This document shows, one piece after another, positions 2,183-33,096 of a stretch of 39,893 bases of DNA. The notes below the pieces were generated by a model. That model saw only the letters and a program-made list of their open reading frames with translations, was not told the origin of the DNA and ran no database searches. The translations under genes and the position numbers were made by a program. The number at the start of each line of letters is the position of its first letter. Positions within the stretch are counted from its first letter, which is position 1. Source of the DNA: a virus; UHGV virus genome UHGV-1364246. One strand, 5' to 3'.

Positions 2183-3746
2183 CTTGAGCCATGTCCTCAC
2201 CAGCTACTTGTCCAACAGTAGCGCCCATGTTAGCACCAGCAGCAGACGCACCGTTGACCACAGCTCCTTGAGCGGATTGTTCTGCCATACGTTGCAACTT
2301 CTCGTCCTGAGTCAGCAGCAAACCGGCAGTGTCAATACCTAAGGCATTCAGCAGTCGCAGCTTCAGGGTAGGCAAGTTAATGTCTGGGTCCTGTTGCAGA
2401 GGCTGTAGCCCGGTCATCATGTTTACTGCCTGAGTCAGCTTCTCTAAGTCTTGACCACGACCTAACGCTTCCAGACCAGTGGATACCGTAGGCTCTACTG
2501 CTTCTTTCGGAAGGTCAGGAATCATGCCAGCAGACTGAAGCTGGTTCATCAGTACACGGACGATAGGTAACTGAAGCTCTTGTGACTGCACTGAGTACAC
2601 GCCACCTAAGGTCGCCTCCAGTTCGCCAGCAACATAACGAATCTCTTCAGCAGTGACTCGCTCGGCATTACGCTGAACAGCACTATTAAGAAGGAAGGCC
2701 CAACCTAAACGTTGCTCGATAGCGTCAGCCACCGACTTAGCAATCGTAAAGTCCTGACCTTTCGTCAGTTGCAGGAAGTTGATGTCCTCAACTCGACCAG
2801 CCACGAACTCACCTGTAGCCGCCTTGTTCAGACGTCTAGGTTGCGTGATACCGTTCGGGTTAACGAGGCCCACCACCTTGGAGGCTACCTTAGCCATTTT
2901 GGTGATAGCTTCTGTAATCGTCTCCAGCGAGTTCAGGTCTCCCAGATACTCCTCGCAGTAAGAACGACCGTAGTCTTCACCATCCAGTCGAACCATTCGT
3001 ACCGGGATGTATGGACATGCAGTCAGCGGGTAGGAACCATCGGTCCCTGCCACCTCAATACCTTCCACTTCCTCGTAGCGAAGATACTCGTCGTCCTGAC
3101 GGTAGATGTGCGTATACACTTCAAGCTCGGTGTCAGGCTCATAGTCGTCTGCGTTGAGTTGAGACTTCACGTCTTCCGGTAGAGCACTAAACGCTACCTT
3201 GTCGAGAGTCACAATCTGCAAGATGTTACCGAACGCATCACGTTGAACAACGTAAGACACTAAGCGGTACATTCGCATTGGACTGTAGGTTCCTTGTTCT
3301 GGAGGAGGGATGTAGAGCAGACAGTTACCTGAGACGATAAGCTGCTTCAAAGCCTCAAACAATGGGACACGGAAACTGTTAGTCTCCATGTAGGCCATCA
3401 ACACACGCTCGACCATAGCCAGCCCTTCGTCAACACGAGCAGCCGCCTCTGAGTCCTGACTCAAGGTCTTGGCCTCATATTCGGAGACTGTCAGTCGCAT
3501 CCACGGTGACTGAGGGAATAACGCCAACATCAGCTTTGCAGCCAAGTTGTTCAAGCAGCGAGCACCCACAGCTTGCCACGGCGTCACGTATTCCGTAGAC
3601 GAGTTGTCGGACTCCTTAGGAAACAGTGACGGGATAGTGACAGCCGCACAGTTCTGAGCGCGCGTCTCATATGGCTGTCTACCGTTCTTCAGTCTGTCAT
3701 AAACTGCCTTCGCGCCTTCAGCAGCAAATCCTTCACGTTCAGCCAT
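2178..3746 (-). CDS. Portal (head-to-tail connector) protein, gp8-like
   Basis: 522 aa; MAEREGFAAEGAKAVYDRLKNGRQPYETRAQNCA... closely matches recalled T7 gp8. Confidence 0.9.
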   Translation of the reverse strand: MAEREGFAAEGAKAVYDRLKNGRQPYETRAQNCAAVTIPSLFPKESDNSSTEYVTPWQAVGARCLNNLAAKLMLALFPQSPWMRLTVSEYEAKTLSQDSEAAARVDEGLAMVERVLMAYMETNSFRVPLFEALKQLIVSGNCLLYIPPPEQGTYSPMRMYRLVSYVVQRDAFGNILQIVTLDKVAFSALPEDVKSQLNADDYEPDTELEVYTHIYRQDDEYLRYEEVEGIEVAGTDGSYPLTACPYIPVRMVRLDGEDYGRSYCEEYLGDLNSLETITEAITKMAKVASKVVGLVNPNGITQPRRLNKAATGEFVAGRVEDINFLQLTKGQDFTIAKSVADAIEQRLGWAFLLNSAVQRNAERVTAEEIRYVAGELEATLGGVYSVQSQELQLPIVRVLMNQLQSAGMIPDLPKEAVEPTVSTGLEALGRGQDLEKLTQAVNMMTGLQPLQQDPDINLPTLKLRLLNALGIDTAGLLLTQDEKLQRMAEQSAQGAVVNGASAAGANMGATVGQVAGEDMAQA

Positions 3747-4394: not shown

Positions 4395-4791
4395 GGTTAA
4401 TCTCCTTAGTTGTTACGATGTCTACCGACCCTGAAACATGCTTGACACGAGAATACCAGCCAAGACCCCAACGCTTGCACTCTTCGTCTATGATGTGTCT
4501 GACAGTCTCAAGAACCTTGCGGGAGGACTGCGAGTCACGACGAATAGCGACGATTGAAAGGTCAAGACCGGGAGTCGGTCGGTGCCAAGATGCGGTAGCC
4601 AGCATGTAGAGATACGCTACTGGTTGACCTGAGACATCGTAGATTGTGTACTCTTCACCGCCGAACTCGTCAGCCATACGGTAAGTATGAGCCTTGAAGT
4701 CCTCGAATGACTTGAAGTTAGACTGCCCGTCTTCCCAGAGGCGACAGGCGCACATGTGGCGACCTTCGCGTGAGTTGAGATATGGTAGCAT
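4387..4791 (-). CDS. gp7-position protein (virion/host-range protein in T7), function uncertain
   Basis: 134 aa ORF in syntenic position between 6.7 and 7.3. Confidence 0.45.
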   Translation of the reverse strand: MLPYLNSREGRHMCACRLWEDGQSNFKSFEDFKAHTYRMADEFGGEEYTIYDVSGQPVAYLYMLATASWHRPTPGLDLSIVAIRRDSQSSRKVLETVRHIIDEECKRWGLGWYSRVKHVSGSVDIVTTKEINRG

Positions 4792-4795
4792 TGTC

Positions 4796-5020
4796 TTACC
4801 CCATGTTTACGCCAGAGGCTCGCATGGCGCGGCTCACTGACGATTTATCTTTTGGTGCAGACTCCTTCTTAACCTTAAGGTCTTTGATACCTTTGGTCTC
4901 GTTTGTGTCTACGTCTGACTCAGCCCCGATGTCAACTGACGCAACTTCCTCACTCAGAGGTGCTGGTTCAGGTGCTTGGACCGAAGGCTTCGGAGTGCTA
5001 ATCTTTGGACTGAAACACAT
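4796..5020 (-). CDS. gp6.7-like small virion protein
   Basis: 74 aa; starts MCFSPKI... like T7 gp6.7; Ser/Lys/acidic-rich. Confidence 0.65.
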   Translation of the reverse strand: MCFSPKISTPKPSVQAPEPAPLSEEVASVDIGAESDVDTNETKGIKDLKVKKESAPKDKSSVSRAMRASGVNMG

Positions 5021-5517: not shown

Positions 5518-6384
5518 TTACATGGATGGTGTCCACAGGATGACCTCCTTGGACTTAGGGTCGTAGTCGGAGGCTCGGCAAATACGAGCGACCTGAGCTT
5601 GGACCAGAAGTTCCTCCTCGGTCATCCCAGCTTTATCAGCCAGAGTCACCATGCAGTCCCACAGCGTCATGTCGTCACGCTTTGGATACTTCTTCCACTC
5701 AGTCTTAATTTTGCCTTTGTTCTTACCAGTCTTAAGCTCACGGCTCTCCTGCACGAAGTAGTACGGCTCGTCAAGGAACGCACGAGTGGTATCCTCACCC
5801 ATCCCCGGAATGCCACCGTAGCCATCTGTAGTGTCACCCTTGATGGTTTGCTCCATGTGCCAGTAGTCTGCCTCAGCAGTAGTATGACTCAGAATTTCAC
5901 CAGTGGTTAACCAGAAGAACTCACAGTTCGGGATGGTCTTGAAGTCCTTATCGCAGGATACCAGCACCGCATGGTCACAGCCAACAATCTGAGGTCTGGT
6001 CCCTATGATACCCATACAGTCATCACCCTCAAGCGTAGGACGTAGGAAGCTGTTGAACCGGGGGTCAGCCATCACTTCGGCTACGAACTTCTTGTAACCT
6101 ACAGGCTTGCGAGAACCTTTACGGTTAGCCTTATAGGTCGGTAATATTGACTTGCGCCAGTTCACGTCATCGGTGAAGCACATCACAATCTTAGCGTCTT
6201 TCCACGCCTTGCGTTTCTTAACGATTTCAGCGATGGTGTTCTCAAGGATACGACGCGCCTTGGCGTGGTCACAAATCAGAGTATAAATATCATCGCCCCA
6301 ATCGGTCTCATCCTCAGCCGCAGCCATAGAAGAGAATACCAGATAGTCACCATCCAGAACCAGAGCTATCTTCTTGTCAGACAT
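5518..6384 (-). CDS. 5'-3' exonuclease (gp6-like, FEN family)
   Basis: 288 aa; LDGDYLVF...NWRK...YKANRK...DGYGGIPGMGE matches recalled T7 gp6. Confidence 0.9.
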   Translation of the reverse strand: MSDKKIALVLDGDYLVFSSMAAAEDETDWGDDIYTLICDHAKARRILENTIAEIVKKRKAWKDAKIVMCFTDDVNWRKSILPTYKANRKGSRKPVGYKKFVAEVMADPRFNSFLRPTLEGDDCMGIIGTRPQIVGCDHAVLVSCDKDFKTIPNCEFFWLTTGEILSHTTAEADYWHMEQTIKGDTTDGYGGIPGMGEDTTRAFLDEPYYFVQESRELKTGKNKGKIKTEWKKYPKRDDMTLWDCMVTLADKAGMTEEELLVQAQVARICRASDYDPKSKEVILWTPSM

Positions 6385-6602
6385 TACGCCTCCTCAACGA
6401 TACACACTGAAGAGAATGCACGTACCGTCTCGACTTCCTCGGCAGCTCCTTTCCAGCGAATAAATGTCTTATGCTTGATGGCTACCGTCTTAGGCATTAC
6501 CCGGACGACTTCGCCTATACACATTGCGTATGATTTTCCAGCAAGACAGAAAGCAACCTTATGTCCTACCTTAAGTTCGCGTCCTGATACGTCTTGATTC
6601 AT
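6384..6602 (-). CDS. Hypothetical 72-aa basic protein at the gp5.9 locus (not homologous to T7 gp5.9)
   Basis: ATG at 6600-6602 overlaps the gp5.7 stop (ATGA); its stop overlaps the gp6 start (TAATG). MNQDVSGRELKVGHKVAFCLAGK... Confidence 0.5.
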   Translation of the reverse strand: MNQDVSGRELKVGHKVAFCLAGKSYAMCIGEVVRVMPKTVAIKHKTFIRWKGAAEEVETVRAFSSVCIVEEA

Positions 6603-6808
6603 AGACAGCCTCCGTGTTGGTTCAGGAACTTGGTGCCAGCAGCGGTAATCTCCCACGCACCGTTGTTACGCCCGTCCATAGACAGGCAGCTAAGATGTCC
6701 ACGACTCGCAGCCTCAGCCACAAGTGCAGCGTTGTTGCGCACATAGTTTGACTGAAAGGTCTTCGGGCAGGACTTAAGGGCCGCAAGGACCCGAAGGTAT
6801 TCACTCAT
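6599..6808 (-). CDS. gp5.7-like protein
   Basis: 69 aa; MSEYLRVLAALKSCPKTFQSNYVRNNAALVAEAASRGHLSCLSM... resembles T7 gp5.7. Confidence 0.7.
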   Translation of the reverse strand: MSEYLRVLAALKSCPKTFQSNYVRNNAALVAEAASRGHLSCLSMDGRNNGAWEITAAGTKFLNQHGGCL

Positions 6809-7104
6809 TGCTTGAACCTCACAGTAGCTGGTGAGACACTGAAGAACTCTGCGTCTGAATACTCCTGTACAGCCTCTTTAATCATTGACCGGAAGCTGTC
6901 ACGCAGAATAAACTCAATCACTGCGTCCATACCTTCCGTCAGCCACAGGGTCAGCATATGGCGCTGCTTAGCGTCTGGATTGATTTCACCTGAGTGAACG
7001 CCTTTAGCCAGATCTCGCAGACCCTTAATGATGAATTCCTCTTGGTCTGTAGGAAGTACAGCCTTAAGGTTGAAACTTACGATAGCGCGTTTGGTCATAG
7101 CCAT
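6805..7104 (-). CDS. gp5.5-like protein (H-NS-binding protein in T7)
   Basis: ATG at 7102-7104 (TAATG overlap with DNAP stop, AAGGAG upstream); MAMTKRAIVSFN...SPATV resembles T7 gp5.5. The ORF-track start at 7122 is an extension. Confidence 0.75.
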   Translation of the reverse strand: MAMTKRAIVSFNLKAVLPTDQEEFIIKGLRDLAKGVHSGEINPDAKQRHMLTLWLTEGMDAVIEFILRDSFRSMIKEAVQEYSDAEFFSVSPATVRFKQ

Positions 7105-9272
7105 TAGTGACACTCCTTCCACGTTGGTCCAATCTTACCTTCGGTATCAAGGACACATTTAAAGTTATAGAACTCACCCACCTTACGCATAGCAAGTTGA
7201 GCAATCCTGCGAATATCTTCGGCAATCTCCATGTTCCGAGCTGCAATCTGCAATTCGTCGTGGACCCATGCCATGTACGCAAAGTCTCCTTCCCAGCCGT
7301 GGACATACCCGGCCTCTTCGAGCATACGTTCAGTCTCTACAATCCAGTGCTTACAGACTACCGCACCATCGCCCTGAAGTAATGCGTTCAGTGCTGAGTG
7401 TGGAGACCGTATGTGGATACGTCGACCATCAAGTCCACGCAACCAACGGCGTTTCCACTTAACGATGTTCTCACCATCTACCCACTTAGAGTCTGATATT
7501 AACGTATTACTCACAGCTTCCCTGAGGTCCTTGATGGCTGGTGTACCCTCAATGAATTTCTTCATGAGAGCTGAACCTTCCTTCTTACCACCGCCGACTA
7601 TCAGTCCAATCTTAGCGGCCCCTGCACCATACAGGAACGCATAGATGAACGTCTTAGCGTTGTTGCGGAAAGCATCATGGTCGTGGCTCGACTTATCGCG
7701 TGGGACGTTAGGTGCTAACCCAGCGTTGACTGCGTTTGCCCAGTGGATGTCACCTTCGACTACAGTCTTCGCATATGCACCACCATCAAACGGAGCCGCT
7801 CGGTTCCCTAGACAACGAAGCTCAAGACCTGAAGCATCCACGCCTACTTGAATCCAAGGGTCTGGCTTGCCATCCTTCTTGTTCCACGCTGCACCGAAAG
7901 CACCACGGCAAGTCTCACCATATGGAGCACCGTTAGCCGGGACCTGAGCCATGTTTGGTGAGCTATGGGTCGCACGTCCTGTTACTGCACCACAAGGGTT
8001 GATTGAACCGTGCATACGTCCGTCTGGACCCACAAGTTTCAACCATGCGTTCTTACCTTCAGCAGCCTGACCGATGCGCTTCTGGACCACAAGATACTCA
8101 CGGACCAACTCTACACAAGCCTGAGCCTCTGCGTCTGGTAACTTAACGTGTTCTAACGTCTCGTCATCGACTACAGGTTTCCCAGTGTCAGTGAAGTCCA
8201 CAGGCTCCCAACCACGCTCCATCAGGACTTTCGCTAAGTGGTCTCCGCTTCCCGGATTAAATTCAACGTAAGTGATTGGCGTGAATGGTGCTCCCTCCAT
8301 CGTGTCTCGCGTATCGAGTTCACAAGGTTCGAGACCTAATCGTTGAGCTTTGTTCTTCGGCTTCTTAAAGATGCCACCGACCTTAGGATACACGACCCTC
8401 GGATACTTCGGAAGGTCCTTACCTGTCCGTGGATGCCTGAAGAACTCCTTGCCTCCCTTTGGTGCATACCAGCTACCGAAAGTAGAGCGCAGCTTGTCCA
8501 GTAACTCCGCACGTTTGACAGTGAGTTCACGATATAAGCCTTCGACCATCTCGGTGTTCATCGGATAGCCGTTACGCTCCATCTTCGCACAGGTCCACGC
8601 AGCATCATGTTCCAGACGCAACGCATAAATCTGTTCGAAAGCGAACTGTTCAGACTGGAAGTAATACTTGTCAGTCAGGAACTTCTTGAACAATGCCAGT
8701 GTGACCACAACGTCCTGAACGTTATAGTCCAGCATCTCCTGAGACGGGAACAACCATTCGTCCCCAGCCTTATATTCGATACCTTCGGCCTTGCACTTGG
8801 CAACGTAATCGTGTTTGTACTCACCCTTCATCTCACCGAGACGATAGCCCCAAGCCTCAAGAGACTGGCGTCCCATCATCTTAGGCGGCAGACGTCCAGC
8901 TTTCACCGCGCCTATGTCTGAGAACTTAATGTTGGGATACATCAAGCGGCCCAGCACCAAGGTATCAATCATCTTGTGTTTCGGGAAGTTAAATCGTTTC
9001 CCAAAGTACAGACGTTTCAGCTTGTCAATAGCCGGGACGTCATAGTTGATACCATTGTGGAATACCAGCATACCATCAGGTGATGCGGCAATCTCTTCCA
9101 CTTTATGAACATACTCTTTGAAGCCACCGACGATACCAACCATCGGAGCTACCCCATACTTAAGGGTCTCATTCGACTCGGCGTTAATCAGGACCCCGCA
9201 GTGGAACTGGGAGACTGTATCAAGGAGACCGTTGGTCTCGATGTCAGACCCATATACGTTACTTAAGTCCAT
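7104..9272 (-). CDS. DNA polymerase (gp5-like, family A with 3'-5' exonuclease)
   Basis: 722 aa; MDLSNVYGSDIETNGLL... exo motif; syntenic; size close to T7 gp5. Confidence 0.92.
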   Translation of the reverse strand: MDLSNVYGSDIETNGLLDTVSQFHCGVLINAESNETLKYGVAPMVGIVGGFKEYVHKVEEIAASPDGMLVFHNGINYDVPAIDKLKRLYFGKRFNFPKHKMIDTLVLGRLMYPNIKFSDIGAVKAGRLPPKMMGRQSLEAWGYRLGEMKGEYKHDYVAKCKAEGIEYKAGDEWLFPSQEMLDYNVQDVVVTLALFKKFLTDKYYFQSEQFAFEQIYALRLEHDAAWTCAKMERNGYPMNTEMVEGLYRELTVKRAELLDKLRSTFGSWYAPKGGKEFFRHPRTGKDLPKYPRVVYPKVGGIFKKPKNKAQRLGLEPCELDTRDTMEGAPFTPITYVEFNPGSGDHLAKVLMERGWEPVDFTDTGKPVVDDETLEHVKLPDAEAQACVELVREYLVVQKRIGQAAEGKNAWLKLVGPDGRMHGSINPCGAVTGRATHSSPNMAQVPANGAPYGETCRGAFGAAWNKKDGKPDPWIQVGVDASGLELRCLGNRAAPFDGGAYAKTVVEGDIHWANAVNAGLAPNVPRDKSSHDHDAFRNNAKTFIYAFLYGAGAAKIGLIVGGGKKEGSALMKKFIEGTPAIKDLREAVSNTLISDSKWVDGENIVKWKRRWLRGLDGRRIHIRSPHSALNALLQGDGAVVCKHWIVETERMLEEAGYVHGWEGDFAYMAWVHDELQIAARNMEIAEDIRRIAQLAMRKVGEFYNFKCVLDTEGKIGPTWKECH

Positions 9273-9664
9273 GTTTCTCCTCCAATTGCTCTAGCCAGTG
9301 TGCGGTGACCCACTCCATACTTCTTACCTAAGGAGCGGTGAGTCCAGCCACCTCCTGCGTAAAGCACCTTGGCCTCTTGTACTATTTCAGGTGTAAGCTT
9401 ATAGCTTCCATGTCGCACGCCTTTAGCGGTTCGACCTCTAACGTCTCTATCGTGATTGTTCTCAGCCCTTGTCCCCAGCTCCAAGTGTTCTGGATTGTAG
9501 CACGCTGGGTTGTCGCATTTGTGCCTCACGACCATTCCCTCTGGTATCGGACCATTCGCCTCCTCGAAGGCTATCAGATGCAGTCTACGGACCTTCCCGT
9601 TGACCTTTCGCATACCGTAGCCGAAACTATCTCGACACCCGGTCCACTCAATGCAATCAAACAT
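9263..9664 (-). CDS. HNH endonuclease
   Basis: ATG at 9662-9664 with GGAGGA upstream; GPIPEGMVVRHKCDNPACYNPEHLELGTRAENN HNH motif. The ORF-track start at 9700 is an extension. Confidence 0.7.
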   Translation of the reverse strand: MFDCIEWTGCRDSFGYGMRKVNGKVRRLHLIAFEEANGPIPEGMVVRHKCDNPACYNPEHLELGTRAENNHDRDVRGRTAKGVRHGSYKLTPEIVQEAKVLYAGGGWTHRSLGKKYGVGHRTLARAIGGETWT

Positions 9665-9680
9665 GGTTAATCCTCCGTTT

Positions 9681-9727
9681 AGTCTAATCATAAAGGCCAC
9701 TCGCTGTGAATGACCTTGAGTCTAGAC
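9681..9727 (-). ncRNA. RNase III processing element (R4.7-like)
   Basis: Conserved ~45-nt element ATCATAAAGGCCAC-N10-ATGACCTTGAGTCTA (plus sense), shared with 17041-17089 and 26086-26139; resembles recalled T7 R-site motif GACTCAAGGTC...GTGGCCTTTATG. Confidence 0.6.
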
Positions 9728-9910
9728 CTAGAAGTCTGTACGCAAGAAGTGGTACATGAACTTACGGTTAGCCTTCTTCCATGCCTTAGAGTCGAACCTC
9801 TGTTCTCCTAGAATGTTTGACAGGAAGGTTGCTTCATCGCTCCACCATTTGTACATGAACCGATGGTATCGAGCTTTAAGTTTCTTTAACACTAGAATGG
9901 AACCCTCCAT
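9728..9910 (-). CDS. Small hypothetical protein (gp4.3/4.5 position)
   Basis: 60 aa ORF with ATG start directly after the primase-helicase gene; weak SD. Confidence 0.35.
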   Translation of the reverse strand: MEGSILVLKKLKARYHRFMYKWWSDEATFLSNILGEQRFDSKAWKKANRKFMYHFLRTDF

Positions 9911-9925
9911 TTATACTTCTCGTAA

Positions 9926-11629
<1,704 letters not shown>

Positions 11630-17008: not shown

Positions 17009-17040
17009 GTGGTTAAATCTCCAGTAGTTTACGTTATGTT

Positions 17041-17089
17041 AGGGTTAATCATGAAGGCCACGACTCTGAGTCATGACCTTGAGTCTAAT
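17041..17089 (-). ncRNA. RNase III processing element (R1.1-like) between the promoter and gene 1.1
   Basis: Second copy of the ATCATGAAGGCCAC...ATGACCTTGAGTCTA element. Confidence 0.6.
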
Positions 17090-21126: not shown

Positions 21127-21560
21127 AGTGATTTCCGTTTAATACAGTCGTATATCCCATACCCTATCAGCCAGATAACTGGCGCTAGACATACCCAATA
21201 TCCCACACCCATAGTTACCTCCTATTAATGCAAGTGGTAATCTTTGAGGCCACCTATCAGTTAGATGACCTCTCGCCTATCACTCAGTACCCGCCTGTTA
21301 GCGTTATGGTCAGGCTATGGTGATTAGCCACGTAGCAAGCCCCGCGCTTCATCATCTCGTAGCAACCATCGTAGAACGCCTGTTCACTGCTATAAGTTAT
21401 CTGGTACATGTTTACTTGTCCTCAGCGTGTAAGCTGTCGTGTATGAGCTTGCGGCCCTCATAGACCGCCTTCAGGAGACGCATAGTCGCATCGTGGTTTA
21501 ATTGCCCGGTCTTGACCATAATCCGGGCGTTGATGATGTGGTGCTGGCAGAGACCATAAG

Positions 21561-23547: not shown

Positions 23548-23570
23548 CTTCCCTATAGTGATAGTTAAGT
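23548..23570 (-). promoter_or_regulatory. Phage RNAP promoter near the right end (phiOR-like, GGGAAG start)
   Basis: Minus-sense CTTAACTATCACTATAGGGAAGA. Confidence 0.75.
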
Positions 23571-23664
23571 CCAAACTACTTGTAAAACAGTAGGTTAGAC
23601 TGGTAGTAACTATAGGTTACTAACCGCGTATTCATGCAGCTTTCACCCATAGTTATTCATTCAG

Positions 23665-26037: not shown

Positions 26038-26085
26038 AGTCGCCCTCCCGGTTTATCAGATTTCACGTAGAGTATCCTCCACTAG

Positions 26086-26139
26086 TTAGTGTTAACCATA
26101 AAGGCCACTACATATAGTAATGACCTTGAGTCTAACACT
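26086..26139 (-). ncRNA. RNase III processing element (R18.5-like)
   Basis: Third copy of the CCATAAAGGCCAC...ATGACCTTGAGTCTA element, between genes 18 and 18.5. Confidence 0.6.
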
Positions 26140-26147
26140 TAAGATAT

Positions 26148-26411
26148 TTACTGTACTCCATATCCAGTGTCATTATCTTCCGTAGCGGAGAGCACCTTAT
26201 CGTACTCTGCGTTCAGGGCCTCCATATCAGCGAGCGTCTTCTCATCAACAGACACCTTGCTTAGCACGAAGTTGTGACGAGCCAGTAGCTTCTCAATGGC
26301 GTTGTAAAGCTGAGGTGAACGCTTAGAGTCATCCCGCAGGTCTTGCAGCATGAGTCGAGCACGTTCAGTATCTAGCATTAAGAGGAACTTCTCTAAGTCC
26401 ATCTGCGTCAT
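26148..26411 (-). CDS. Terminase small subunit (gp18-like)
   Basis: 87 aa; FLLMLDTERARLMLQDLRDDSKRSPQLYNAIEKLLARH matches recalled T7 gp18. Confidence 0.85.
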   Translation of the reverse strand: MTQMDLEKFLLMLDTERARLMLQDLRDDSKRSPQLYNAIEKLLARHNFVLSKVSVDEKTLADMEALNAEYDKVLSATEDNDTGYGVQ

Positions 26412-26602
26412 GTTTTACCACCTCCTTTAATCGTTTTGTAGACTAGCACACCAATCTGGACAACGGTGTACGCGATAGCTGCAACGTAGAACCATTCGTT
26501 CAGTGTAAGTCCGAAGAAGAACCGACTGGCACCATCAGCCGCAGCGGTCCCGACGATAGGAGAGGCTTTAAGGACCTCATTCTTGAAGTCTAACTCAATC
26601 AT
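26408..26602 (-). CDS. Holin (gp17.5-like, class II)
   Basis: 64 aa; ...LKASPIVGTAAADGASRFFFGLTLNEWFYVAAIAYTVVQIG matches recalled T7 gp17.5. Confidence 0.85.
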   Translation of the reverse strand: MIELDFKNEVLKASPIVGTAAADGASRFFFGLTLNEWFYVAAIAYTVVQIGVLVYKTIKGGGKT

Positions 26603-26924
26603 AAAACCTCCAGTTTAAAGCGGGTCGTCCGTGACCCAAAGTTGTACCATACGTTGGTCAGCGTGTAGTTAGCCTCTACCTCCACAACCTTCGATCCTCT
26701 ACCCAGTTCAGGAATCCAATGGTGCCAGAGGTAGCAGTAATGGTCGTAACCACGTTAACGTCTTTAACAGTTCCGTCATCAGTAGTCAGAGTAAAGAGAT
26801 TGGAACCATCAGAGCCATTGATATTTGATGGTTTTAGCAACAACATCAGCAACCAAAACAACAAATCCCACAAGGAGGAAATGAGCCTCCTATGAAATTC
26901 GACGATTCAATACCCTTCTAATGA

Positions 26925-26950
26925 TAAAAATAACCCGCCAAAGCGGGGTT
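26925..26950. terminator. GC hairpin with flanking A/T runs immediately 3' of the tail fiber gene (possible bidirectional terminator)
   Basis: aaaaataaCCCGCcaaaGCGGGgtttattatttt; embedded in an AT-rich 355-bp gap between fiber and holin. Confidence 0.5.
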
Positions 26951-26957
26951 TATTATT

Positions 26958-29144
26958 TTAAAAAGTAGCACCCCTCCATGAGCAATCAACAATCCCACCG
27001 CGCACCATCTTCCACCGCATGTTGTACGATGCCGATGGTACAAGGCGGAGTCCTATTCCCAGATTCGGTGTCAGCTCGACCGCATTTATCCAAGCAGTTG
27101 ATGAGGTTGAAAATGTAAAAGATAGCTGCTCCGTATTTGTGTAAAAATCATCAACGCAAGTTGTTATTGATGCTGTAGTATTTGCAGTATCCGCGCCGTT
27201 AAAATAATACAGCTCAACAGCCACGTACCCGTGGTTCTTCATCCTTGTAGCAAACACGCCTCCGGTGTTTCTTGCCGCGATACCACCCTGTTTGAATGTG
27301 GTGTTACGCTCTCCCTGTGCGCTCCCGGCATTGATAGTCTGGAATGGTGTGACATCGGCGGAACTGTACTTGTCATTGTACAACTGCATAGCCCCACCCA
27401 TTCTATCCGTGTAAAATGCGTACACATCTATGTCATAAGGTTTTTGTCTAGGTACAGAATTGAATTCTTTCCCTAAAGCGTACAAATCAGTATCGGTGGT
27501 CAATGTGTTGTGTGTGTTTACGATGAGCTGTGTTTCCCACGAGAACGCCGCATACTCACCATCGCCCATGTTAAAAAACTTCTTAGCGAAAGCTATCTGT
27601 TTTGCTTTGTTTTTGAAGTTGTCAGAACCACCATTTGCATCAGTTGTAAACAATCCAACGCAAGGTACAATTCTTGATGTAGGGCATTTATACTTTAGCT
27701 CGGCCCACCCAATAACAGCCTGTCGTTTATTCCTGGCATCATCCCAGTCATCATGATAATACGCGTCTGCAAATATAATATCGTATCCAGTACCATCATA
27801 ACCGCCCGGGTGTGTATTTGAATCAAATCCAAAAATACCATGTTCAGCTATGCATAATGATTTTTCTGTGAATGATTTAAATGCCGCGATGCGGGTTTCT
27901 TGCGCCGCCCTGCTAACTGAATTATTTTGTGGTTCATCAAACAAATAATAGCCGATAACACAATCTCTACTGTCTAAGTCGGTAGCCGGAGTGTTTGTCT
28001 GTCCATATATTGGCCCACCAAGTATAAGTTTAAGCCCAACAGCTTCGGCGGCGTTACAGGCTTTTTCCATATTCCCACCGCTTGTCCACGCTTGTCCGTA
28101 GTGTATTAGCGTATTAAACCCGGCAGTTTTTAGTTGTAACATATCACATATATCAAACACGCGATGGACATATACAGCCTTCATGAGCGAATGATTTACA
28201 GGGGTTTCACTGTCAAGCTCACAAGGAACGTTTGGTAGCCTTGTGTATGTGATGGCGGCCTTTCCTGTCAATCTGGCTCCTTCAGGCCAATCAAAACTCG
28301 ATAATGTCGTGGCACCGGATATGTGTGCGTACCCGTGGTCCGATATAGCTGATAGAACCGCGTCTTTACCATCAACACCACTACCATAAACATACCCGTA
28401 ATTAGAGATGTCTGCGCGGTCTAAATTTAATCGTTGTTGAACAGTTAATCCGTTATTAGTCCCAACTAAATTGGAACCATTATTTGTTTTAAGTGCGCTT
28501 CTTAATGAAGCATCACCAACACTAACCCACGCACCTAATCCAATCCCACCGGAAGTTTCAGGAGTTGAACCAGCAGGAACGTTCTTTGGAAGCGTACCAC
28601 CCCAGCGGTAATAATCACCATCCTCTTCCCATAGCAGGACCTCGTTCCATGTTGTAACGTTGAAGCCTTTCTCGAAGGAGCGACGGGTAATATAGCCAAA
28701 TAGACCAGCTGCCTTGATACTCTCAGCAATTCGTCGTGCTTCGTCCTCGCTATCCTTAGCGTTGCCAGCAGAGCTACCAGCAGCATCGGCATATTCCTTC
28801 GCTAAGTCAACCGTTTGGTCTCGACCTTCTTCTGCAATATGGATAGCCTGAAGCTCTGCATTGGTCAGGTCACTAGCTGTCAACACTGAGCCATTCCTGA
28901 AGTCTACCACTAAGTCAGTTCCAGTCTGACGGTGAATACGAACGATGTCGAAACCTGATTGGTCAACCAACATCTCAATCATCGTTGGATTAATGAATCG
29001 GTAATCTCGACCAACTTCCAGTACACGGTTCAGGGTAGGGTTAGAGCTATTCACCAGCGTAACAACAACAAACGTTCTGGCTAGGTAGTCGAACTCAATC
29101 CTGTACTGAGTGTTTCCTGAAGGGAATTGTGTAATCGTGGACAT
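26958..29144 (-). CDS. Tail fiber / tailspike: gp17-like N-terminal adaptor fused to a glycoside-hydrolase-like (putative polysaccharide depolymerase) C-terminal region
   Basis: 728 aa; the N-terminus (up to about LVDFRNGSVLTASDL...AIHIAEEGRD) matches the T7 gp17 anchor; the remainder is unrelated to T7, with a TIM-barrel-like YLFDEPQ motif; coding DNA from about 27000 to 28500 is visibly AT-richer than the rest of the genome. Confidence 0.8.
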   Translation of the reverse strand: MSTITQFPSGNTQYRIEFDYLARTFVVVTLVNSSNPTLNRVLEVGRDYRFINPTMIEMLVDQSGFDIVRIHRQTGTDLVVDFRNGSVLTASDLTNAELQAIHIAEEGRDQTVDLAKEYADAAGSSAGNAKDSEDEARRIAESIKAAGLFGYITRRSFEKGFNVTTWNEVLLWEEDGDYYRWGGTLPKNVPAGSTPETSGGIGLGAWVSVGDASLRSALKTNNGSNLVGTNNGLTVQQRLNLDRADISNYGYVYGSGVDGKDAVLSAISDHGYAHISGATTLSSFDWPEGARLTGKAAITYTRLPNVPCELDSETPVNHSLMKAVYVHRVFDICDMLQLKTAGFNTLIHYGQAWTSGGNMEKACNAAEAVGLKLILGGPIYGQTNTPATDLDSRDCVIGYYLFDEPQNNSVSRAAQETRIAAFKSFTEKSLCIAEHGIFGFDSNTHPGGYDGTGYDIIFADAYYHDDWDDARNKRQAVIGWAELKYKCPTSRIVPCVGLFTTDANGGSDNFKNKAKQIAFAKKFFNMGDGEYAAFSWETQLIVNTHNTLTTDTDLYALGKEFNSVPRQKPYDIDVYAFYTDRMGGAMQLYNDKYSSADVTPFQTINAGSAQGERNTTFKQGGIAARNTGGVFATRMKNHGYVAVELYYFNGADTANTTASITTCVDDFYTNTEQLSFTFSTSSTAWINAVELTPNLGIGLRLVPSASYNMRWKMVRGGIVDCSWRGATF

Positions 29145-29190: not shown

Positions 29191-29213
29191 GTTTCCTATA
29201 GTGATAGTTTAGT
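29191..29213 (-). promoter_or_regulatory. Phage RNAP promoter (phi17-like), overlapping the gp16 stop codon
   Basis: Minus-sense CTAAACTATCACTATAGGAAAC. Confidence 0.75.
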
Positions 29214-32200
29214 CCTTGATGTGGATACCTTGCTCCTCAAACGTTCCAAGCAACAGCTTCTGGGTAATTGGGTCGTTCGGAACCAGTTCACGGAACGTAT
29301 TATACATCCCGGTCATGTAGTCACGCTCGTTGACACGAGTATCAGCCTTGAGGTAGCCAGCCAAGTTGTAAGCCGAAGCGCCAACGTTAGCAGCATATCC
29401 GAAAGCTGGAACCTGCTCCAAGAAGTTACCAACAACATTCATCACAGGGCCACTTGTAGCTGCACCATACGCGATGGCACGTTCAGGCTTCTCTGTAGGT
29501 GAACGAGGTAGGATAGACGAACGGAGCATCTTAGTGTCCTCATACCCAGCGATCCCACCCAGAATGTTGGCGACACCAAGTGGTCCACCAAGATGTGAAC
29601 TACGTGATAGAGCTGCATATCCAATCATCGTCGGGTCCAGAGCTTGCTTGAGGTAGTCACGGTCTCGACCCTCCTGCATAGCGTAAGCCTTGACATGCGC
29701 CTGAGCCATGTAGTAGATACCAGCAAGGCCCATAGAGATCACAGTGGACAGAGCAGCGTCCATCGCTCGGTTGTTCTTCGTGGCGTTATAGAAGGTTCGC
29801 ATGGTACGTCCATTGATGGACTTGATGACGAAGTTCTTAAACTGAAGGACAGTCTTAGCGAGAGGACCATAAGCCTTGGCGTCCATGTTTGATAGCTTAT
29901 GAGGTCGGAGTAACGTTTCGTCAGCGATAGTGTCACCCATACGCCACAGGTCCATAGCCCTTGGGTCCTGACTGAACGCCTTCTTATCCTTGATGGTGTA
30001 CTTCCCGTCTGGACCACGCGTCACTGACTCACGGATTAGGGACTTAATGCCCTTCCACTGCTCGTCAGAGATACCAGCGGTCTTCAGCCATCGGTCATCG
30101 AACTTACGCTTACTGCCCGTCAGGCTATGCTCCACTATGTCAGACAGGAAGCCTTGACGTCCAGCATCTAACAGGTAGTTGGTCGTACCGTTGAGGACTT
30201 TAGTGAACGGAGAGCGTACTGCAAGTTCACCAGTGTAATACTTGGCAGTCCCCAGAGCTGTAGCTGTACCACGACCAAGGTCGCTGTAAGACCGCAGACG
30301 GTCAATGACATCCTGTTTAGATGGGCGGATTGAGTCATCAAGTTCCTTACCAAAGATAACATTGTGCAGGTCCTTAATCTCTGAGGCCCCTACCTTCTTG
30401 TTACGGAAGGCTAGGTCACGGAAAATCGGGACTCCATGCAGCAGCGCACGAACGTTACCACGAGCCAGCATACCACCAATCTCCGTTAAGTTCTGAACAC
30501 CCATGTAGGCATTCTTAGCGAAGAACGATAGGTCTGTCATTGTGCGCATAACGGTAGCGAAAGCAGCATCGTCAGCACCATCACGTCGAGCACGACCAGT
30601 CAGAATCTTCAAGGTGTCACGTAAGGTCGAGACCTCACCTTTCAACTTACCGTCATCACCAGCCTTGTTCATCATGGTCTCAACCAAGTCCTTCATGTCC
30701 TTCGTGGTTCTGCCTGTACCAGCCATGATAGCAATATCGCCATTAACTCTACGGTTGTAGGCCGGGATAATCTTGTCCATGTCCCACTCACGCAGGTTAT
30801 TGACACTGAAGGTTTGACCGTTAGGCAGGACGATTGACATATCGCTATCGAACAGGTTACGAGCCTCAAGGAAGCTGTTGTTCTCCAGACCAACCAGACC
30901 GTTGATGTTCTCTTCCATTACGGATGAACGTTCGAACTGCTCGGTGTGAGAGATACCGTAAGCCTTATCGTTGGCGTACTTATCGACCGCAGCAGCAAGT
31001 CCCTCTGGAGTCAACGTAGGGTCAGCCTCTAAGAGTGCCTCGTCCACGCGTTTCTTGACTTCAGGTCGAGACGCATAGCTGGTCAACCATGACTTTTTGA
31101 TGGCCTCCTGCAACGCCTCTGGACTACCAAGCTCCTTGATGTACAAATCCTTCATCTGTTTGCTATACACATGAGGGACGTAGGTTCCCTTGAAGCGGCT
31201 ACCCGGAAAGATAGACTGAGCGTCTGGGCGACCAAACATAGCCGGGTTCTCCATCATCTCACGCTTGGCGTCGAACTGGTTCTTCAGCAGGTCATAGACT
31301 TTCAGTTCTCCCGGAGTTAGTTCAGCCTTCAGGTTTCCGCTACCATCTTCGATAGCCATAGACACACGCTGGTAGATGTCCTGACGGAATGCGCCAGAGT
31401 CTCGCCAGAATGCTGTCTGGAAGTACGGGTCCTTTAGTGCCTCAGTAACCGCATCGTCGATGTCGTTGTAGAACCGATGGTCCACAGCACGAAGTCTCTC
31501 GAACACGTCTGACGCAGTTGTCCCGATTTTACCTGAGGCCCCAGACTGCATACCAGTCGGTGAACGTACTAAGTCAGCAGCTACTCCACGAATCTCAGGG
31601 TTCTCAGATCGAAGCAGCTTCAGGCCAATCTCGGTAAGTCCACCAAGGTTCACACCAGCAGCGGCACGTTCCGGCTCAATCACTTCGTCAAAGACTTGAC
31701 GTGTCTTAGGGTTCAGAGGGTTCTCACCAATCAGGATTGAACCATCTTCCAGTCGTACACTACCCGGCTCGTTCGGAACGTCTGCGAACTTAACACCTTG
31801 ATGACTAAAGGTCTGCTCACCTTCCTGAATAGGGAGACGAGACAGGTCCTGACCATCAACGTTACGAGCGGTCTCACGAGCTTCCAGACGTGTAGCTGGC
31901 CCAGCAAACTCATTAGTGTTGCGACCTAAGGCTCTGCCTAGGCCATCAGCTATAGCAGTCATACCGCCACCGAAGAGAGCACCACCAAGGATAGCTTCAG
32001 CCACATGAGCATCACCACCAGCCACTGAGGTACGGGCCATCTCAGACACACCAGCTAGTGCTCCAGATTGAGCCGCCACTGTGAACATCTTGTTGACCAG
32101 TTTACCTCCTTTACCCACCTGTCCAGCGATAGGAACGTAGGTCAGAGGGTCCACACCAGCGCCAATCACACCAGCGGCTAACTGAGCACCAGTCCCAGCC

Positions 32201-33096
32201 TTGGCCTTCTCTTGGTCCAACTTCTGGTTCTCAAGCGCCAAGTTAATAAGCTCGGTCAGGTTCTGAGGAGAGCCTCCAGTAATGACTCCGTAATACTGAG
32301 GCAGAACCCCAGCGTTACGAATCTGGTCAAGCTCCTCACGGGTCCATTTATGGTTGTTCCATCTTGTCGGGTTGAACACATCTCCAATGACATCAAGTGA
32401 GTCCTCGGTCTGACCAGCGCGGATAGCCACGCCGACCATAGAGTTCTTCACTTCAGCTTCTGTAGCCGCACCGAACCCGAACCACGTAGAGCGTCCCTCT
32501 CGTTCCTGCATGGTCTCGCCAGTAGCCTTATAGAACATCTCACCAAACGATTCGTTGGGAGCTTCAGGTGCTTGACCCTCAATGTTCAGACCAGCAGCGG
32601 TCGGAAGGTTCTCACCCAGAGCTACTTTAGGTTTAGACTTGAGTCCTTCCGTGAGTGCGTCAAATACGTTAGCGCTTACTGGTGGCGTCTTTGGGCTGAT
32701 ACCGTTGAGTGCTCTTGCGACTCCCTGCTGATAGACTTCAGGGTCGTACCGGGAGCCTGTCTCATGGAAGCTGATAGCTTGCGCCAGAGAAGACAGGGTG
32801 TCCGGATTCGAGAGGTCGAGACTCTGGGTAGCTGGGATACCAGTCGCAGCCACCACTGAGTCAATATAAGCCTGAGTGTCGTTCTCATTAGGAGGTGCCC
32901 ATCGGTTGATAATCTTCTCGATGGAGTCATAACCTTGGCGACCGTAGGACAGCAGGTTTTTACCTAAAGCTCGGACGCCAGACTCTGGACTATCGAATGT
33001 GACAAATGCGCCATCATCTCCAGTCATTCCTTCCCATTGGTCCTTACTTACCCGGATGTTCCCAGGATTGTTATTGCGAATACCACGAGTCGCCAT
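29209..33096 (-). CDS. Internal virion core protein gp16-like, with a non-T7 N-terminal domain
   Basis: 1295 aa; from about residue 200 onward collinear with recalled T7 gp16; the first ~190 aa (MATRGIRNNNPGNIRVSKDQWEGM...) do not resemble the T7 lytic transglycosylase domain. Confidence 0.9.
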   Translation of the reverse strand: MATRGIRNNNPGNIRVSKDQWEGMTGDDGAFVTFDSPESGVRALGKNLLSYGRQGYDSIEKIINRWAPPNENDTQAYIDSVVAATGIPATQSLDLSNPDTLSSLAQAISFHETGSRYDPEVYQQGVARALNGISPKTPPVSANVFDALTEGLKSKPKVALGENLPTAAGLNIEGQAPEAPNESFGEMFYKATGETMQEREGRSTWFGFGAATEAEVKNSMVGVAIRAGQTEDSLDVIGDVFNPTRWNNHKWTREELDQIRNAGVLPQYYGVITGGSPQNLTELINLALENQKLDQEKAKAGTGAQLAAGVIGAGVDPLTYVPIAGQVGKGGKLVNKMFTVAAQSGALAGVSEMARTSVAGGDAHVAEAILGGALFGGGMTAIADGLGRALGRNTNEFAGPATRLEARETARNVDGQDLSRLPIQEGEQTFSHQGVKFADVPNEPGSVRLEDGSILIGENPLNPKTRQVFDEVIEPERAAAGVNLGGLTEIGLKLLRSENPEIRGVAADLVRSPTGMQSGASGKIGTTASDVFERLRAVDHRFYNDIDDAVTEALKDPYFQTAFWRDSGAFRQDIYQRVSMAIEDGSGNLKAELTPGELKVYDLLKNQFDAKREMMENPAMFGRPDAQSIFPGSRFKGTYVPHVYSKQMKDLYIKELGSPEALQEAIKKSWLTSYASRPEVKKRVDEALLEADPTLTPEGLAAAVDKYANDKAYGISHTEQFERSSVMEENINGLVGLENNSFLEARNLFDSDMSIVLPNGQTFSVNNLREWDMDKIIPAYNRRVNGDIAIMAGTGRTTKDMKDLVETMMNKAGDDGKLKGEVSTLRDTLKILTGRARRDGADDAAFATVMRTMTDLSFFAKNAYMGVQNLTEIGGMLARGNVRALLHGVPIFRDLAFRNKKVGASEIKDLHNVIFGKELDDSIRPSKQDVIDRLRSYSDLGRGTATALGTAKYYTGELAVRSPFTKVLNGTTNYLLDAGRQGFLSDIVEHSLTGSKRKFDDRWLKTAGISDEQWKGIKSLIRESVTRGPDGKYTIKDKKAFSQDPRAMDLWRMGDTIADETLLRPHKLSNMDAKAYGPLAKTVLQFKNFVIKSINGRTMRTFYNATKNNRAMDAALSTVISMGLAGIYYMAQAHVKAYAMQEGRDRDYLKQALDPTMIGYAALSRSSHLGGPLGVANILGGIAGYEDTKMLRSSILPRSPTEKPERAIAYGAATSGPVMNVVGNFLEQVPAFGYAANVGASAYNLAGYLKADTRVNERDYMTGMYNTFRELVPNDPITQKLLLGTFEEQGIHIKD

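Follow-up and report, generated by a model that had tools for sequence, protein, structure and literature searches.

Receptor-binding domains are exchanged across the genus Kayfunavirus and other lytic genera, as laid out by Pas, Latka, Fieseler and Briers 2023 (PMC10408124). In the same paper, conserved flanking DNA motifs common to Kayfunavirus and other lytic genera are proposed as recombination hotspots, and a conserved predicted terminator motif is described downstream of the receptor-binding protein genes of several genera. Tailspikes with a TIM barrel are known from the Acinetobacter phages APK26, Aci07, Bestia and AB3P2, phages with depolymerase activity (PMC11823257). For APK26 gp48 the enzymatic mechanism on the K26 capsule is called established, according to a citation in a review. 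In this study we analyzed the UHGV virus genome UHGV-1364246 (39,893 nucleotides (nt); 'the window' means this whole stretch of DNA), a complete T7-like genome that is read on the reverse strand and belongs to a Kayfunavirus. Our subject is its tailspike gene together with the spacer that separates this gene from the holin gene. The closest relatives are the tail proteins of the phages PE3-1 and JSS1, with 92-93% identity over the whole gene. We consider it quite probable that the gene encodes a Kayfunavirus tailspike carrying a polysaccharide-hydrolysing module that was recombined in from a DS8/Akira-type siphovirus.

Horizontal origin of the receptor-binding module

The tailspike gene, its parts (in amino acid residues, aa) and the block it has in common with siphoviruses are located as follows:
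26958-29144, minus strand: tailspike gene (gene 17 equivalent), 728 aa plus stop, from the list of open reading frames and the PE3-1 match
28695-29144, minus strand: T7 gp17-type tail-attachment domain plus linker, aa 1-150, from PF03906 and PDB matches
28512-28682, minus strand: Tail_spike_N (CBA120 TSP1 / G7C gp66-type), aa 155-211, from PF18668
28215-28511, minus strand: neck plus small alpha/beta domain, aa 212-310, from the secondary structure of the AlphaFold2 model, model residues 1-90
27450-28214, minus strand: predicted (beta/alpha)8 TIM barrel, putative endoglycosidase domain, aa 311-565
26961-27449, minus strand: C-terminal beta-sandwich (CBM6 / jelly-roll-like), aa 566-728, all-beta in the AlphaFold2 model, model residues 352-501
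26838-28642, minus strand: block colinear with the tailspike locus of DS8/Akira-type siphoviruses, comprising part of Tail_spike_N, the receptor-binding module, a terminator and the 3' end of a gene for single-stranded-DNA-binding protein (SSB)

The block from 28642 to 26838 is covered by a single blastn alignment of 1808 nt to the loci L006 and L007, with 88.3% identity. In the flanks of L006, a 43-kb metagenomic contig, identity is 84-93% with DS8 and 79-93% with Akira. Homology to L006 begins at 28642, with 77% identity up to 28500, and at the other end the alignment passes the stop codon and a hairpin and then runs 81 nt into the next siphovirus gene. In the sister Kayfunaviruses IMEP24 and PH1061, the sequence up to 28500-28504 (aa 215) shows 95-96% identity with the window; their module is unrelated, and similarity resumes from 26905 or 26864 onwards. 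Judged from these alignments, the junction lies inside or after Tail_spike_N (aa 155-215) and not straight after the gp17 anchor. The colinearity with the siphovirus locus, together with the donor terminator and the SSB 3' end, is direct alignment evidence that the module was acquired horizontally, as the original prediction, an earlier note made from the sequence alone, had suspected. That note had placed a chimeric tail fibre at 26680-28560; all the features it named are present, but they lie on the minus strand, and its span takes in only the C-terminal two thirds of the protein and most of the spacer.

The N-terminal part of the protein consists of two domains. Phage_T7_tail (PF03906) matches aa 10-115 (E 2.2e-16, 60.4 bits against a Pfam cut-off of 25.2), and in a PDB sequence search the T7 gp17 structures 7boz and 8dsp match aa 6-116, so that the proposed resemblance of the first ~150 residues to T7 gp17 is roughly right. 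The T7 gp17 match ends at aa 116, and the PDB search found no T7-like shaft or C-terminal tip domain. The remainder had been called unrelated to T7, which agrees with this result, but a second adaptor had been missed: Tail_spike_N (PF18668) matches aa 155-211 (E 2.7e-19, 69.5 bits against a cut-off of 25), and the CBA120 TSP3/TSP4 structures match aa 151-235. This domain is common to siphovirus tailspikes and to tailspikes of many phage genera. The solved 843-aa tail spike protein 9vvr_A (PDB) is near-identical over aa 1-215 and unrelated afterwards.

Gene remnants in the spacer

Four elements can be read in the spacer between the tailspike and holin genes:
26934-26947, minus strand (also scores as a terminator on the plus strand): intrinsic-terminator-like hairpin with U tract
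26838-26921, plus strand: siphovirus SSB remnant, the last 27 codons (QQHQQPKQQIPQGGNEPPMKFDDSIPF) plus stop, from tblastn and DNA alignment
26645-26814, minus strand: frameshifted remnant of an older Kayfunavirus tail-fibre gene of Penshu1 type, covering its last ~56 codons
26603-26644, minus strand: native Kayfunavirus intergenic region with the holin ribosome-binding site, conserved in PE3-1, Penshu1, K1F and many Kayfunaviruses

The spacer (26603-26957) has the predicted length of 355 nt and, with 43.7% G+C (GC), is AT-rich as announced. However, our alignments resolve it into a mosaic of two gene remnants and the native intergenic region rather than a plain AT-rich spacer. The SSB remnant is identical to DS8 in 23 of 27 residues (tblastn, E 2e-15) and to Akira in 22 of 27 (E 1e-14), and intact SSB genes stand at this position after the tailspike gene, convergent to it, in DS8, Akira, L006 and L007. 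The fibre remnant is 88% identical at the nucleotide level to positions 2500-2756 of the Penshu1 locus, where 2671 is the last position of the Penshu1 fibre gene; a frameshift divides the protein match between two frames. As far as this alignment tells, the remnant is the 3' end, now orphaned, of a fibre displaced by the cassette. In PE3-1 and JSS1, 287 nt (window positions 26684-26970) are deleted, which takes away the hairpin, the SSB remnant and the greater part of the old-fibre remnant; hence the mosaic is dispensable. The deletion point of PE3-1 lies at positions 3731-3744 of its locus, and short GTGGAGG-like repeats are found at both edges in the window. A minus-strand open reading frame at 26676-26873 (65 aa), listed as a 'hypothetical protein' in some relatives, was rejected as a gene and is regarded as a chance frame: it begins antisense to the SSB remnant and continues as the old-fibre C-terminus out of context, frameshifted near the end.

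The hairpin and read-through transcription

The hairpin consists of five G-C pairs with a 4-nt loop, is followed by the U-rich tail TTATTTTTAT and stands 11 nt after the stop codon. Its region (26919-26960) is 93% identical to L006. Its homologue in DS8/Akira-type siphoviruses is the terminator that separates the converging tailspike and SSB genes. Since the siphovirus tailspike gene is followed by a convergent SSB gene, and since the end of that gene is kept in the window, the hairpin is the terminator of the donor. Its transcriptional setting is given by the following features:
11 sites from 1125 to 36492 (e.g. 29194-29216 and 23551-23573), all minus strand, pointing leftwards: phage RNA-polymerase promoter, core TAAACTATCACTATAGGA
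29194-29216, minus strand: gene-17 promoter equivalent, a copy of this core ~50 nt upstream of the tailspike start
29209-33096: internal virion protein gene, preceding the tailspike gene
26408-26602: holin gene, downstream of the tailspike gene and followed by small terminase, Rz and large terminase

All 11 promoter copies in the window are without mismatches, with 0.01 expected by chance. The promoter scan of the window found no phage promoter between 29194 and 23568; a hidden one in the spacer was considered and rejected, with none there even at three mismatches. The holin, terminase and Rz genes, having no promoter of their own, would therefore depend on read-through of the hairpin, and termination must accordingly be leaky instead of complete or efficient. 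A stable hairpin terminator had been predicted at this place. A terminator-like hairpin is indeed present, but its stability is moderate, it is inherited donor sequence and it must be leaky.

It might be possible that the hairpin is more than baggage from the donor, namely an adaptive terminator specific to this gene, by which transcription of the holin and terminase genes is insulated or attenuated. It does combine a GC hairpin with a U tract, termination would lower the expression of holin, terminase and Rz because no promoter follows between 29194 and 23568, and a conserved predicted terminator motif after receptor-binding protein genes of several genera is described by Pas et al. (PMC10408124). 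Nevertheless we hold such an adaptive role to be rather unlikely: the hairpin has its homologue in the terminator between the siphovirus tailspike and SSB genes and is of modest stability, PE3-1 and JSS1 are viable isolates without it, and a different hairpin takes its place in IMEP24. A terminator inherited with the donor module therefore remains our preferred interpretation.

Fold and family of the C-terminal module

The module was modelled with AlphaFold2 as a monomer (aa 221-728, 41 homologues), with a mean predicted local distance difference test score of 90.8 and a predicted template modelling (TM) score of 0.88. The model divides into a small neck domain, a series of eight strand-helix units (aa 311-565) and an all-beta domain (aa 566-728). 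All best structural matches of the predicted barrel fold are glycoside hydrolases (GH), with no beta-helix or other lyase fold among the top ones, and the beta-sandwich gives local Foldseek matches to CBM6 modules and to GH5-CBM6 enzymes. The structure prediction thus agrees with the proposal of a hydrolase-like region, a glycosidase-type TIM barrel with the DEP residues of its YLFDEPQ motif at the acid/base position, and not a non-enzymatic fibre fold.

At the sequence level the barrel is isolated. No glycoside hydrolase Pfam family was found at E<=1 in this protein or in 41 close homologues, the GH5 profile (Pfam Cellulase, PF00150) does not match the tailspike, neither whole-module nor barrel-only profiles found a PDB sequence match for aa 221-728, and the barrel profile found no PDB glycosidase at E<=10. 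Among 1.84 billion clustered proteins the barrel profile collected 165 representatives, almost all of tailspike length. This barrel family has no Pfam model and no solved structure. The module is found behind at least five N-terminal anchors (P22 head-binding, Tail_spike_N alone, T7 tail, PF27114 and tail-collar). Among complete E. coli genomes, 8 of 5,426 carry it at >80% nucleotide identity, and five of these eight are bovine or cattle isolates with identical matches.

The active site

The motif that had been likened to the NEP motif of GH5 lies at:
27927-27947, minus strand: YLFDEPQ, aa 400-406, at the C-terminal end of barrel strand 4

Conservation was counted in 117 of the barrel-family representatives, aligned to the family profile and 13-30% identical. 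D403 is kept in 116, E404 in all 117 and P405 in 113 of them; Q415, D455 and Y462 are also invariant or nearly so. DEP follows directly on model strand 4, where clan GH-A carries its N-E-P acid/base motif, and the tailspike family has Asp where clan GH-A has Asn before the acid/base Glu. From its place in the model, E404 is predicted to be the general acid/base. Further GH-A-like signatures are a D-x-Y after strand 6 and a Trp after strand 8. In P0185, a distant family member, Pfam GH2_C (the GH2 TIM barrel) scores 21.9 bits against a cut-off of 21 and spans the protein's own DEP; this match may form a thin and weak bridge to clan GH-A in sequence, the sole one.

Strand 7 of the tailspike ends in I-V-P-C-V-G-L-F and has no nucleophile Glu, and in the family Glu occurs in at most 5 of 117 representatives at any single one of three strand-7 end positions. 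Because this Glu is absent and because there is no Pfam or PDB sequence match, the tailspike is not a GH5 or a canonical GH-A enzyme. The NEP analogy is hence right for the acid/base only. Apart from D455, whose place at the N-terminal end of strand 6 is non-catalytic, no second universally conserved carboxylate was found among the 117 representatives. Candidates for the second catalytic group are D460 (strand 6), E537 (strand 8) and E434 (strand 5), or catalysis might be substrate-assisted via D403. As a tentative suggestion, somewhat doubtful in our own view, the barrel may represent an uncatalogued, almost phage-only glycoside hydrolase family, which kept the GH-A scaffold and the strand-4 acid/base, lost the strand-7 nucleophile and works by a non-canonical catalysis. 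The nucleophile or base could have been relocated to strand 5, 6 or 8, or the substrate could assist via the invariant Asp-Glu, as in GH20, GH84 and GH123. If this were true, the tailspike would be the first example from an E. coli phage.

The missing strand-7 Glu could also be taken to mean that the TIM barrel is catalytically dead and only binds polysaccharide like a lectin, with recognition but no depolymerisation; the lack of a sequence match to curated glycoside hydrolase families would fit such a binder. However, the invariance or near invariance of D403, E404 and P405 is typical of catalytic and not of binding residues, and APK26 gp48, a member of the same family, is reported with an established enzymatic mechanism on the K26 capsule in the review mentioned above. 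A pure binder therefore seems improbable to us, and we continue to regard the barrel as a putative hydrolase.

Relatives and probable substrate

PE3-1 and JSS1 are both recorded as isolated on E. coli O153. More distant relatives are the tailspikes of the Acinetobacter phages APK26, Aci07, Bestia and AB3P2, which were matched by tblastn. Scored with the family profile, APK26 gp48 reaches 74 bits, and its VDEP is preserved; Aci07 has the same architecture of barrel and beta-sandwich (TM score 0.79, BFVD). The same module is also present, at 85% nucleotide identity and behind a P22 head-binding domain, in a P22-like E. coli prophage (L008, positions 6001-10492). In this prophage the module is adjoined by convergent gtrA, gtrB and a serotype-specific gtr gene, the O-antigen modification genes gtrABC, and then by an integrase. 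Because the hosts of PE3-1 and JSS1 are O153 and because the prophage copy lies beside gtrABC, the O-antigen of E. coli, of O153 type, is probably the substrate. In our literature search we found no paper on PE3-1 or O153 and no biochemical study of the PE3-1 tail protein. A paper on the O153-specific TSP3 of the Agtrevirus AV101 draws no connection to PE3-1, JSS1 or the barrel fold, and there are no Agtrevirus records among our tblastn matches.

The repeat unit of O153 is not known to contain uronic acid, which beta-elimination requires. A polysaccharide lyase is nevertheless what the databases suggest, since GenBank record KJ748011 and UniRef name the 92%-identical PE3-1 homologue a 'lyase'. 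The RefSeq re-annotation says only 'tail protein', and the predicted (beta/alpha)8 barrel finds its best matches exclusively in glycoside hydrolases, with no lyase fold among the top matches. That the module is a lyase is thus very improbable. The name, which has spread to UniRef, is probably wrong, and the predicted fold, a glycoside-hydrolase-type TIM barrel, would correct it.

Base composition

The coding region of aa 216-728 has 44.2% GC against 50.0% in the window (z = -3.6), so that composition is not uniform and the module is AT-richer than the genome, as had been noticed by eye. It lies in the lowest-GC stretch: only 1.4% of all 1539-nt segments are as low, and among segments of this length that do not overlap the module there is none (minimum 44.8%). 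At third codon positions its GC (GC3) is 0.40, compared with 0.45-0.64 in other genes. The siphovirus loci and genomes have 44-46% GC, to which the module is close, the Kayfunavirus backbone has ~50% and the native Penshu1 fibre 51%. That the low GC merely reflects the amino-acid and codon composition of a fast-evolving domain which diverged in place, for which one could cite the several phages with tailspike genes slightly below their own genome GC and the low GC3 (0.43) of the conserved N-terminal 215 aa, is, unless the contigs are assembly chimeras, already refuted by the alignments, namely by the contiguous 88% nucleotide identity to the siphovirus locus beyond the stop codon into terminator and SSB gene, by the stranded 3' end of the older fibre gene downstream, and by the sister Kayfunaviruses, 95-96% identical up to 28500 and unrelated beyond.

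Proposed function and course of events

We propose that aa 1-150 dock the tailspike on the tail as T7 gp17 does and that Tail_spike_N (aa 155-211) serves as an adaptor between this anchor and the receptor-binding module. The module itself (aa 216-728), with neck, glycosidase-type barrel and beta-sandwich, would be both receptor-binding and receptor-destroying. The tailspike is presumably a trimer, although the model is monomeric. The barrel most likely binds and hydrolyses a surface polysaccharide of the host, probably the O153-type E. coli O-antigen; hydrolysis would allow the virion to reach the outer membrane and might thereby fix the host range. The module did not evolve in place. Instead, a DS8/Akira-type siphovirus tailspike seems to have recombined into the ancestral Kayfunavirus gene 17, the insert carrying with it the donor terminator and the last 27 codons of the convergent SSB gene, while the 3' end of the old fibre gene was left stranded downstream. 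Tail_spike_N at the 5' side and the terminator with the SSB remnant at the 3' side could serve as homology arms, common with siphoviruses, for later module swaps.

Several points weigh against this proposal. The strand-7 nucleophile Glu is not kept in the family, where the corresponding positions are mainly G, L/A and F/Y, and because this canonical residue is absent family-wide a complete catalytic pair cannot be named. The receptor-binding module is 7-8% diverged from that of PE3-1. Finally, the hairpin is short and only moderately stable (centroid -9.7 kcal/mol, z -1.97), and since it is also lost in PE3-1 it may have no role in this genome.

If the proposal holds, the module may be regarded as a candidate depolymerase for the O-antigen of an E. 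coli serogroup that is seldom targeted. It would be a tailspike enzyme that is not a beta-helix, from a small and structurally unsolved family whose predicted catalytic machinery departs from the clan it resembles. The natural junctions at ~aa 215 and at the terminator might be of use for host-range engineering in T7-like phages.

Other features of the genome

An element of ~51 nt is present in three copies (17038-17088, 21230-21280 and 26085-26135). On the transcribed minus strand the copies form extended hairpins interrupted by an internal loop (-20 to -23 kcal/mol, z -3.2 to -3.9), which resemble T7-type RNase III processing sites; one of them lies between the small terminase and Rz genes. 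At this place IMEP24 has an extra gene for a hypothetical protein of 91 aa (positions 4625-4900 of its locus) that is absent from the window, where the counterpart (26038-26147) holds the RNase III-like hairpin only.

Comparison with known systems

PE3-1 and JSS1 (Kayfunavirus PE31; YP_009044291) have the same 728-aa architecture as the window tailspike, the same TIM-barrel module and the same place between internal virion protein and holin. PE3-1 differs, through its deletion, in the last three tailspike residues (EEI, where the window has ATF) and in a spacer of 71 nt compared with 355 nt. APK26 gp48, the Aci07 tailspike, Bestia gp53 and AB3P2 gp17 belong by profile to the same sequence family, and APK26 keeps the DEP, the strand-6 D-x-Y and the strand-7 IP-x-x-G motifs. 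However, these Acinetobacter tailspikes are only 18-28% identical and have Friunavirus and myovirus-type anchors, and the substrate of APK26 is the K26 capsule of A. baumannii, whereas an E. coli polysaccharide is the probable substrate of the window tailspike. With clan GH-A (GH5, GH2, GH42, GH35, GH164) the barrel has in common the predicted (beta/alpha)8 fold and the strand-4 acid/base Glu; it differs in the lack of membership at the sequence level, in Asp for Asn and in the absent strand-7 Glu. T7 gp17 has a homologous N-terminal attachment domain and the same downstream order of holin, small terminase, Rz and large terminase, but the window tailspike is without the T7-type shaft and tip, and everything after ~aa 150 is unrelated.

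This kind of tailspike swap, the TIM-barrel tailspike depolymerases of Acinetobacter phages and the 92% identical GenBank protein are thus already known. Compared with what the available part of Pas et al. 2023 (PMC10408124) describes, the stretch downstream of the window tailspike can be identified as the donor terminator and SSB 3' end, followed by a stranded fibre end; in a limited literature search we found no paper describing these two remnants. They would show the direction of the transfer, and they would tell what the conserved downstream motif, for which a role as recombination hotspot has been proposed, concretely is. The locus appears as an unusually clear record of the transfer of a tailspike from a siphovirus to a podovirus, in which the ends of donor and recipient can still be read. 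In conclusion, our analysis adds to the known systems the reading of the downstream motif as donor terminator and SSB end, the stranded end of the former fibre gene, and the absence of the nucleophile from this family of enzymes.

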